Shown here: positions 1,280-4,749 of the stretch, piece by piece
Position numbering within the stretch: position 1 is the first letter of the stretch
Layout of the letters: the number at the start of each line of letters is the position of its first letter
Source: a virus
Lineage: Duplodnaviria; Heunggongvirae; Uroviricota; Caudoviricetes
Length of the DNA: 4,749 bases
Reading direction: 5' to 3' (one strand)
IMG/VR virus record: IMGVR_UViG_2706794683_000002
Notes under the pieces: generated by a model
The model's input: the letters and a program-made list of their open reading frames with translations, nothing else
Databases searched by the model: none
Told to the model about the DNA's origin: nothing
Program-made: the position numbers and the translations under genes

Positions 1280-1589
1280 GACAACCAAAGAACTCTGCGG
1301 TCAGGGCCTGCTGTGCGTGACTGACCTGGCGGTACTTGAGCGGTGGTGCGTGGCCTATGAGTTCTGGCGACGTGCCGTGAAAAATATTGCCATACAGGGC
1401 AACACCATCACCGGTGCAATGGGCGGCAGGGTCAAAAATCCGGAGCTGACCGCCAAAAAAGAACAGGAGTCCGAGATGAGCAGCACGGGGGCAATGCTCG
1501 GACTCGACCCCAGCAGCCGCCAGCGTCTGATTGGCCTGGCGGGGCAGAAGAAAGCCACTAACCCGTTTCTGAAAATTATCGAATCATGA
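1280..1589 (+). CDS. Terminase small subunit (P27/HK97-type), 3' portion; 5' end hidden in the N gap
   Basis: The frame is open from the gap edge (1281) to TGA 1587-1589, with no stop between the gap and the first in-frame ATG at 1317. Translation is ...[75 protein letters not shown].... Only about 102 codons are visible, so the true start is probably inside the gap. Its stop overlaps the large terminase start (ATGA at 1586). Confidence 0.78.
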
Positions 1590-3319
1590 GCCGGAAATCT
1601 TACCCCAACGTAAATGCTGCAAATCAGTATGCCCGGGATGTCGTGCGCGGAAAGATTGTTGCCTGCCAGTTTGTGATTCAGGCCTGCCAGCGCCATCTTG
1701 ATGACCTGATGGCGGAAAAAAGTAAGTCGTTTCGTTACCGCTTCGACAAGGACCTGGCTGAACGGGCCGCGAAATTTATTCAGCTGTTGCCGCACACCAA
1801 GGGGGAGTGGGCATTCAAACGGATGCCCATCACGCTGGAGCCGTGGCAGCTATTTGTGATCTGCTGTGCGTTTGGCTGGGTCAATAAAGGCACCCGGTTG
1901 CGCCGCTTCCGGGAGGTGTACACCGAAATCCCCCGTAAGAACGGCAAATCAGCAATCTCTGCCGGTGTTGCCCTGTATTGTTTTGCCTGTGATAACGAGT
2001 TTGGCGCGGAAGTGTATTCCGGTGCCACGACAGAGAAACAGGCGTGGGAAGTCTTTCGCCCGGCGCGACTGATGTGTAAACGCACACCCATGCTGACGGA
2101 AGCGTTCGGGATTGAGGTTAACGCCTCAAACATGAACCGTCCGGAGGATGGCGCGCGGTTTGAACCGCTGATCGGCAACCCAGGTGATGGTTCATCACCC
2201 CACTGTGCCGTGGTTGATGAATATCACGAGCATGCCACCGATGCGCTTTATACCACAATGCTTACCGGGATGGGGGCGCGACGTCAGCCACTGATGTGGG
2301 CCATCACCACCGCCGGGTACAACATTGAGGGGCCGTGCTACGACAAGCGGCGGGAAGTCATCGAGATGCTCAACGGCTCGGTGCCTAACGATGAACTGTT
2401 CGGGATCATCTATACCGTTGATGAAGGTGACGACTGGACCGGCCCGCAGGTGCTGGAAAAAGCCAATCCAAATATTGGCGTGTCGGTTTATCGCGAATTT
2501 TTGTTAAGTCAGCAGCAGCGTGCGAAAAATAACGCCCGTCTGGCAAACGTCTTTAAAACAAAACACCTCAATATCTGGGTGTCGGCGCGTTCGGCGTATT
2601 TCAACTTGGTGAGCTGGCAGAGCTGCGAGGATAAATCACTGACCCTTGAGCAGTTCGAGGGGCAGCCGTGCATTCTGGCCTTTGACCTGGCGCGTAAGCT
2701 GGATATGAACAGCATGGCGCGACTTTATACCCGCGAGATTGACGGTAAAACGCATTACTACAGTGTGGCCCCGCGTTTCTGGGTACCGTATGACACGGTG
2801 TACAGCGTCGAGAAAAATGAAGATCGACGGACAGCCGAACGCTTTCAGAAATGGGTGGAAATGGGCGTTCTGACCGTTACCGATGGTGCGGAGGTGGATT
2901 ATCGCTACATCCTCGAGGAGGCCAAAGCGGCGAACAAAATCAGCCCGGTCAGTGAGTCACCCATCGACCCCTTCGGGGCGACCGGGTTGTCACATGACCT
3001 TGCTGATGAAGACCTGAATCCCGTCACTATCGTCCAGAACTTCACCAATATGTCCGATCCGATGAAAGAGCTGGAAGCAGCGATTGAATCGGGACGTTTT
3101 CATCATGACGGCAATCCCATCATGACCTGGTGTATCGGCAACGTGGTCGGCAAAAACATGCCGGGTAACGATGATGTGGTGAAACCCGTCAAAGAGCAGG
3201 CGGAAAACAAAATCGATGGTGCAGTTGCGCTGATTATGGCGGTTGGCAGAGCCATGCTGTACGAGAAAGAAGACACGCTGTCTGACCACATTGAGTCCTA
3301 CGGGATCCGCTCGCTTTAA
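1586..3319 (+). CDS. Terminase large subunit (ATPase plus nuclease)
   Basis: 577-aa ORF with a Walker A-like motif EIPRKNGKS (GKS at nt 1943-1951), a Walker B-like motif CAVVDEYHE (DE at nt 2216-2221) and C-terminal acidic nuclease-type motifs ([23 protein letters not shown]). It is translationally coupled to the small terminase. Confidence 0.95.
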
Positions 3320-3330
3320 CTGAGGTAATT

Positions 3331-3513
3331 ATGATCATGCTGATTCTCGCGCCTCTGGTGGGCGTGCTGGGTGCGCTTTTGCTGGCGTATGGTGCCTGGC
3401 TGATTTATCCCCCGGCGGGTTTTGTTGTTGCCGGGGCGCTGTGCCTGTTCTGGTCGTGGCTGGTGGCGCGATATCTCGACCGTACACGGCAGTCTGTCGG
3501 CGGAGGTAAATAG
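3331..3513 (+). CDS. Small hydrophobic protein (about 60 aa, two predicted transmembrane segments), function unknown
   Basis: RBS GAGG (3322-3325) lies 5 nt upstream of ATG 3331. The product [60 protein letters not shown] has two hydrophobic stretches. Its TAG stop (3511-3513) overlaps a GTG at 3513 that is a likely portal start. No family is recognised. Confidence 0.5.
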
Positions 3514-4669
3514 TGTTCTTTTCGGGATTATTTCAACGAAAAAGCGATGTGCCGGTGACCACGCCAGCAGAACTGCTGATGCTATCGGGCTGTCATACGA
3601 CACCTATACCGGAAAGCGGATCAGTAGCCAGCGGGCCATGCGCCTGACGGCGGTCTATTCTTGCGTCAGGGTGCTGGCAGAGTCTGTTGGTATGCTGCCC
3701 TGCAGTCTCTACAAAATCAGCGGTACCCTGAAAACACGGGCGGTGGATGAACGACTGCATAAGTTGGTTTCGGCAAAACCTAATGGCTACATGACACCGC
3801 AGGAATTCTGGGAGCTGGTTATTGTCTGCCTGTGTCTACGGGGGAATTTTTACGCCTACAAGGTAAAGGCACTGGGAGAAGTGGTGGAGCTTCTTCCGAT
3901 AGATCCGGGCTGTGTGGAACCGAAGCTGAACAGCCAGTGGCAGCCGGTTTATCAGGTGACGTTTCCGGATGGTTCCGTGGATGTGTTGACCCAGAATGAA
4001 ATCTGGCATGTGCGCACCCTGACGCTGGATGGACTTGTCGGGCTGAATCCCATTGCGTATGCGCGTGAGGCCATTTCACTGGCAGCGGCAACCGAGGAGC
4101 ACGGTGCCAGGTTGTTTAGTAATGGTGCGGTGACATCCGGTGTGTTGCGTACGGAACAAAAGCTCACGCCGGATGCTTACGAGCGTCTGAAGAAAGATTT
4201 TGAGGAGTGTCACACGGGGCTTGGCAATGCTCACCGCCCGATGATTCTGGAAATGGGGCTGGACTGGAAGTCGATGGCGCTGAACGCCGAGGACAGTCAG
4301 TTCCTGGAAACCCGCAAGTTTCAGCTGGAAGAAATCTGTCGTCTGTTCCGGGTGCCGTTGCACATGGTGCAGAACACCGATCGCGCCACCTTCAACAATA
4401 TCGAAGAGCTGGGGCTGGGATTTATCAACTATTCACTGGTGCCGTATCTGACCCGCATCGAACAGCGGATCAACACCGGACTGGTACGAAAAAGTAAGCA
4501 GGGCGTTTATTACGCCAAATTTAACGCCGGGGCGTTACTGCGCGGGGATATGAAGTCCCGTTTTGAAGCCTACGCCACCGGGATCAACTGGGGAATTTAC
4601 TCTTCCAATGACTGCCGCGACCTGGAAGATATGAATCCGCGTCCCGGTGGTGTAATGCCGATCAGTTAA
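3513..4669 (+). CDS. Portal protein (HK97-family type), with an apparent frameshift near 3573-3580 (sequencing error or pseudogenising indel)
   Basis: A long frame-2 ORF ends at TAA 4667-4669 and contains a motif I recognise as portal-like (RAMRLTAVYSCVRVLAESVGMLP), at the expected position after the large terminase. The best start signal is GGAGG (3502-3506) then GTG 3513, but that is in frame 0, which runs only 44 codons ([26 protein letters not shown]...) to TGA 3645-3647. The frame-2 ORF has no RBS-backed start; its in-frame ATGs are at 3422 (inside the upstream small ORF) and 3638. Joining frame 0 to frame 2 near 3575 gives a plausible continuous N-terminus. Confidence 0.85.
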
Positions 4670-4700
4670 GGATCAGTTGACCGATCCAGTGGCTGTGTAA

Positions 4701-4737
4701 GAATCCGGAAACGCTCACTTGTTTCCGGATTTTTTTA
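4701..4737 (+). terminator. Putative rho-independent terminator downstream of the portal
   Basis: Perfect 11-bp inverted repeat, aatccggaaac (4702-4712) and gtttccggatt (4721-4731), with an 8-nt loop, running into a T-tract (4730-4736). The orientation (T-run 3' of the stem on +) fits termination of + strand transcription. Confidence 0.55.
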
Positions 4738-4749
4738 TGCACATTGGAC

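Follow-up and report, generated by a model that had tools for sequence, protein, structure and literature searches.

Downstream of the terminase genes of this virus record, the portal gene is split over two reading frames: its only start codon preceded by a ribosome binding site opens a short frame, and the body of the gene lies in another. We asked whether this split reflects an error in a draft sequence, a way of expressing the gene, or the decay of a gene no longer in use. We refer below to the whole stretch of DNA analysed, 4,749 nucleotides, as the window. The features of the start region and of the portal gene are as follows.

Positions 3331–3513, plus strand: gene for a ymfR-like small membrane protein of 60 amino acids, taken from the list of open reading frames (ORFs), the TAG stop of which overlaps the portal start codon.
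Positions 3502–3506, plus strand: Shine–Dalgarno sequence GGAGG, 6 bases 5′ of GTG 3513, read directly from the sequence and invariant in phiP27, A36 and ST64B.
Positions 3513–3647, plus strand: 5′ fragment of the portal gene, GTG 3513 to TGA 3645–3647, 44 codons, of which codons 1–21 are authentic and those past the deletion are out of frame.
Positions 3575–3576, plus strand: site of a 1-bp deletion, where one G of CTG/GCN (Leu22–Ala23) is missing in the DNA alignment with phiP27, A36 and ST64B.
Positions 3576–3637, plus strand: portal codons 23–42 in the frame of the body, 5′ of ATG 3638, from the alignment with relatives.
Positions 3638–4652, plus strand: from ATG 3638, which encodes Met43 when the protein is intact, through codon 380 to the first base of codon 381, where portal sequence ends.

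We analysed the start region first by its gene order. The 60-codon ymfR-like ORF ends at TAG 3511–3513, and its final G is the first base of GTG 3513. In phiP27, ST64B and E. coli A36, a gene of 183 bp, which NCBI names ‘protein YmfR’, likewise separates terL from the portal gene; the 60-amino-acid product of the window had no match to a Pfam family. In phiP27, A36 and the phages of Klebsiella and Yersinia, the portal is annotated from the position of GTG 3513, and the portal of phiP27 (NP_543090.1, L38) and the near-identical portal of the E. coli A36 prophage have the same GGAGG-N6-GTG, with the same overlap with the ymfR-like stop codon. The ST64B annotation begins 3 nt upstream of the GTG position, and the N-terminus of the Pseudomonas phage protein is slightly different. 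GGAGG (3502–3506) with GTG 3513 is the normal portal start, as a first-pass annotation of this DNA had proposed. Its description of the frames was also accurate throughout: the GTG frame stops at 3645–3647, and the body lies in another frame, open over 3422–4669, with no start codon in that stretch that has a Shine–Dalgarno sequence in front. Gene callers begin a 343-amino-acid ‘portal protein’ at ATG 3638.

The ORF at 3638–4666 (343 amino acids) matched the Phage_portal family PF04860 over profile positions 2–321 of 321 (1.7e-107; 359.8 bits, cutoff 39.1). Its phiP27 orthologue matched the solved HK97 portal (8cez/8fql; E = 1.5e-53, residues 17–387) and 9lbn (4.1e-50). The homology to the HK97 gp3 portal (8cez/8fql) is clear at the sequence level, yet identity is only about 30%, and the S. 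sonnei copy differs from it in being, in all likelihood, a pseudogene.

The closest phage relative is phiP27, with 93.7% identity over region 3300–4650 to its membrane-protein and portal genes; identity was up to 93.6% for E. coli prophages and 87–89% for ST64B, SfI, SfII, SfIV and several E. coli phages. The protein of the window, once repaired, is identical to the phiP27 portal at 368 of 378 amino acids (97%). The dN/dS against phiP27 was 0.04 over the portal body, which shows that nearly all of the divergence from phiP27 arose under selection and, thus, that inactivation is recent relative to that divergence. Upstream of the portal, the order HNH, TerS, TerL, YmfR is shared by phiP27 and the window. 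In phiP27 the portal is one uninterrupted ORF of 413 codons (also 413 in A36), followed by prohead protease and capsid genes, whereas the window is one G short in codons 22–23, lacks codons 381–413 and has IS4 in place of the downstream genes. IS4 likewise stands in place of the downstream genes in the seven complete S. sonnei chromosomes fetched; the protease and capsid side of the head module was seen after IS4 only in one IMG/VR scaffold, L022. Instead of a single intact frame of about 400–425 codons, the window thus has a portal gene interrupted by a 1-bp deletion and by IS4 at codon 380.

A further GenBank match to the terL/ymfR/portal junction (window 3300–3642, 96.8% identical) was OR844959.1, 1764 bp long and entitled ‘Enterococcus phage Efm 3-10’, which is probably a mislabelled or contaminant sequence.

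We then considered whether the short 5′ frame belongs to the portal at all. The repaired 60-amino-acid N-terminus aligns continuously inside annotated portal genes, with at least 80% of this query covered in 63 phage records, at identities as low as about 40%. Klebsiella, Yersinia and Pseudomonas phages keep the arrangement in which the portal start overlaps a preceding small ORF. Codons 1–42 show eight synonymous and two non-synonymous differences from phiP27 (dN/dS 0.07). The continuous alignment, the kept layout and the coding-like pattern of codons 1–42 together show that the N-terminal stretch belongs to the portal and does not form a small gene by itself. The first-pass annotation had named the alternative, intact portals that start at the methionine of ATG 3638 next to a separate conserved small protein. 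We found instead that phiP27, ST64B, the Sf phages and the Klebsiella, Yersinia and Pseudomonas phages all encode an FFSGLFQRKS-type N-terminus in one ORF with the portal, and that none of these intact homologues starts at the methionine corresponding to ATG 3638. We therefore rejected the two-gene reading.

The break between the frames could be placed exactly. The DNA alignment has a single gap, GAGCTGGCGGA in the relatives against GAACT-GCTGA in the window, which shows that one G of CTG/GC was lost between 3575 and 3576; one missing base near 3575 had been predicted from the two frames in the first-pass annotation. The G-containing reading of 3573–3582, that is, the undeleted allele, is CTGGCTGATGC. 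Putting the G back at 3575/3576 gives ...TTPAELADAIGLSYD... / ...TTPAELADAIGLSYDTYTGK..., identical to ST64B over residues 14–35. The extra G is present in 92 of the 98 IMG/VR relatives that cover the site, each with one unbroken ORF, and the remaining six carry the same S. sonnei-type allele as the window. When IMG/VR was scanned for both states of the S. sonnei-type allele, G present or G absent, only the deleted form appeared, and an exact-pattern scan for either allele in a contig collection with one genome per GTDB species gave no match. Among E. coli complete genomes and phage records there was no undeleted near-identical copy by which the deletion could be dated, the best relative having about 94% identity. 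The deletion is close to fixation in S. sonnei, and none of the other relatives examined has it. As a result of the loss of the G at 3575/3576, ribosomes that start from GGAGG-N6-GTG terminate after 44 codons at TGA 3645.

The 3′ end of the gene is also broken, a cut-off at 4652/4653 that did not form part of the earlier finding. Two features describe it.

Positions 4641–4652, plus strand: 12-bp target sequence of IS4, GTCCCGGTGGTG, which recurs directly after the right end of IS4 in scaffold L022 and is followed there by the rest of the portal gene.
Positions 4653–4749, plus strand: left end of IS4, its first 97 nt; the window stops inside the element, from which the final residues ...VMPIS and the stop codon TAA (4667–4669) derive.

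Portal homology stops at 4652 (first base of codon 381) and the left end of IS4, TAATGCCGATCAGTTAAG..., comes next, so that the portal is truncated at codon 380 and its last 33 codons are missing. The 3′ end of the window (from 4648/4649 to 4749) was 98–100% identical to IS4 (InsG) copies. In the S. sonnei locus L007, the inverted repeats TAATGCCGATCAGTTAAG and CTTAACTGACTGGCATTA bound an element of 1426 bp, and a transposase with Nterm_IS4 and DDE_Tnp_1 domains lies downstream in the complete genomes. IS4 duplicates 11–13 bp of its target on insertion. The 12-bp GTCCCGGTGGTG flanks both ends of IS4 in scaffold L022 (the repeat being at 4197–4208), a scaffold that is probably misjoined. The right end of IS4, the target duplication and the portal 3′ end together would read GGCATTA+GTCCCGGTGGTGATGTCTATC. 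In L007 the right flank of IS4 is unrelated to the left one, with no target duplication, which points to a later rearrangement.

Scaffold L022 (IMGVR_UViG_2663762996_000003) carries the deleted allele and IS4, beyond which lie the remaining part of the portal gene and genes for a protease, a capsid and lambda-like tails. We rejected it as a complete prophage with the frameshift. On each side of its IS4 (2433–4260) lies a copy of the sequence that spans the portal 3′ end and protease 5′ end, with three differences between the two in 386 nt, and the left part of this IS4 is replaced by an N and an inverted hairpin loop; the scaffold is probably a misjoin of two related prophages. We relied on it solely for the right junction of IS4. 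At that junction, the 12-bp repeat followed by the remaining portal and by head and tail genes suggests that the original event was a simple insertion of IS4 into a complete late region.

We compared what lies to the right of IS4 in S. sonnei chromosomes. In the Ss046 type, an IS3-family element interrupts IS4 at nt 1123, and chromosomal bamE and recN come next; the end of this element presumably resembles IS2. In the second type (L007 and L008), a complete 1426-bp IS4 is followed by raiA-pheL-pheA-tyrA. Head, tail or other phage genes to the right of IS4 were found in none of the seven complete S. sonnei chromosomes fetched. The existence of two right-hand contexts (L004–L010, at about 9068–11500) points to IS-mediated rearrangement within S. 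sonnei. Pseudogene formation, gene loss and rearrangement mediated by IS elements have been reported for Shigella genomes (PMC8072062), and the portal broken by IS4, the second IS within the IS4 of Ss046 and the varying right-hand context all match that pattern. The 1-bp deletion differs in being a second, IS-independent lesion in the same gene, which is nothing unusual.

The relative age of the two lesions can be approached through rare alleles. By exact protein look-up, the repaired protein with the IS4-derived tail (P0031, 385 amino acids) was found on 19 contigs, and a partial form that ends before the IS4 tail (P0041, 379 amino acids) on four, all named S. sonnei. Both proteins have the S. 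sonnei-specific residues V13 and D23. Accessions for the undeleted allele include CSN80531.1, CSQ26545.1, CSQ49866.1, CSQ61896.1 and EGD9969674.1. The existence of a rare allele that bears the G together with the IS4 tail (23 contigs) suggests that IS4 came first. We thus favour, as the probable order, insertion of IS4 followed by loss of the G in an ancestor of most of the sampled S. sonnei, an order read solely from the protein look-ups of the undeleted allele. In scaffold L022, the deleted allele is linked to a portal 3′ end that appears uninterrupted, which makes this order less than certain.

The above results make it almost certain that the portal is a true pseudogene, with two independent lesions (IS4 and the 1-bp deletion), in an S. 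sonnei prophage remnant. In the likely course of events, IS4 would have inserted after the first base of codon 381 (4652/4653), removing the last 33 codons and, in the seven complete S. sonnei chromosomes, separating the portal from any head or tail genes. The later loss of one G of CTGGC, in codons 22–23, may then have been neutral decay in an already dead gene, and no functional portal would be made.

It is possible, in principle, that the 343-amino-acid portal-domain protein is made by reinitiation at ATG 3638 and has been kept for a function, such as interference with incoming HK97-like phages. The ORF holds the whole PF04860 domain and is intact on at least 1000 contigs, and ATG 3638 lies 7 nt upstream of the stop of the GTG frame, TGA 3645, near enough for termination-reinitiation. 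However, ATG 3638 is without a preceding Shine–Dalgarno sequence, Met43 is a conserved internal residue of all intact portals, and in none of the relatives does the gene start here. As S. sonnei is a clone of recent origin, the conservation of the 343-amino-acid ORF within it says nothing about selection. We consider such a kept protein very unlikely, and still less likely that it benefits S. sonnei, for instance through dominant-negative portal subunits that disrupt the heads of superinfecting HK97-like phages as they assemble.

An error of sequencing or assembly in a draft, with the true gene in frame, has next to no probability. The window is a draft scaffold with a run of 210 N and ends inside a repeat, and a few S. 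sonnei assemblies do encode the in-frame N-terminus. However, window positions 1280–4749 matched six complete S. sonnei chromosomes with no mismatch, among them CP000038, the chromosome of S. sonnei Ss046 (PMC5447701), and the base was absent from all ten S. sonnei loci fetched (seven complete chromosomes, including Ss046, and three draft contigs from other assemblies), as well as from six IMG/VR contigs. TerL identical to that of the window appears in 4305 blocks of the assembly index, and at least 1000 contigs carry, under the name ‘portal protein [Shigella sonnei]’, the 343-amino-acid ORF to which the deletion gives rise. The presence of the same deletion in finished chromosomes and, through this ORF, on so many contigs excludes an indel of draft assembly. 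The choice left open in the first-pass annotation, between such an indel and a decaying prophage, is thus settled for the latter by a deletion common to finished S. sonnei chromosomes and many assemblies.

Two places at which the window does differ from, or lacks, sequence of other S. sonnei loci lie in its left part. Positions 49 and 76, in the lysozyme gene at the left end, are the sole positions at which it departs from the other S. sonnei loci with which that stretch was compared, which suggests that the contig end runs into a repeat common to other lambdoid prophages. The 210 N at 1070–1279 correspond to 259 nt in finished S. sonnei genomes (L010, 5436–5694) and hide a cos-like site (CTGCCCGCCCCATC, compared with CGCCCGCCCC for the cos of phiP27) and about 62 codons at the start of the gene for the small terminase subunit.

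Deliberate joining of the two frames into a full-length portal, through programmed −1 ribosomal frameshifting or slippage during transcription, we reject as having practically no chance of being right: a −1 shift anywhere in 3513–3644 would connect the two open frames and the A5 run at 3539–3543 could permit rare slippage, but no X XXY YYZ slippery heptamer occurs in any register of 3513–3647, the longest homopolymers there are A5 and T4, the portal is in a single frame in phiP27, A36, ST64B, the Klebsiella, Yersinia and Pseudomonas phages and all 92 IMG/VR relatives not of the sonnei type, the rare S. sonnei allele is itself in frame, and the gene is cut by IS4 anyway, without adjoining head or tail genes. 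The lack of a heptamer and of any two-frame relative bears out the doubt about programmed frameshifting expressed in the first-pass annotation. An Rfam scan of the window found no families, and promoter and terminator scans of 3250–4749 stayed at the level of shuffled sequence.

The remnant that houses the pseudogene combines lambdoid replication, Q-antiterminator and lysis genes with a packaging module of the phiP27/ST64B type (HNH-TerS-TerL-YmfR-portal). Several phiP27-like regions have been listed in S. sonnei by PHAST-type analyses (PMC5447701). Some of its other genes look complete. The spanin pair consists of Rz (154 amino acids, 165–629) and, embedded in its +1 frame, Rz1 (60 amino acids, 385–567), with the lipobox LVVVGC and a proline-rich stretch. 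An intact gene for an HNH endonuclease (672–1022) immediately precedes the cos-like site and terminase genes, as in phiP27, and the gene for the large terminase subunit (1586–3319, 577 amino acids) is intact despite the prophage being defective.

The finding bears on how the region is annotated. The portal call in Ss046, AAZ89394.1 (UniRef Q3YYL8, 414 amino acids; L010 7840–9084, equal to window 3425–4669), uses an upstream TTG start in the frame of the body and overlaps the ymfR-like gene; some 55 residues at its N-terminus are spurious, since that stretch is read in the wrong frame, and the call is a fragment of a dead gene. The 343-amino-acid ‘portal protein’ calls from ATG 3638 are, likewise, pieces of a dead gene, and prophage predictors that score the region as ‘intact’ from terminase and portal matches are misled. 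The rare undeleted allele could be a small phylogenetic marker within S. sonnei. A pseudogene in an IS-riddled prophage remnant is nothing new in kind, and the biological weight of this one is small: it is another pseudogene in a species known for IS expansion and gene decay, and its value is mainly for annotation.
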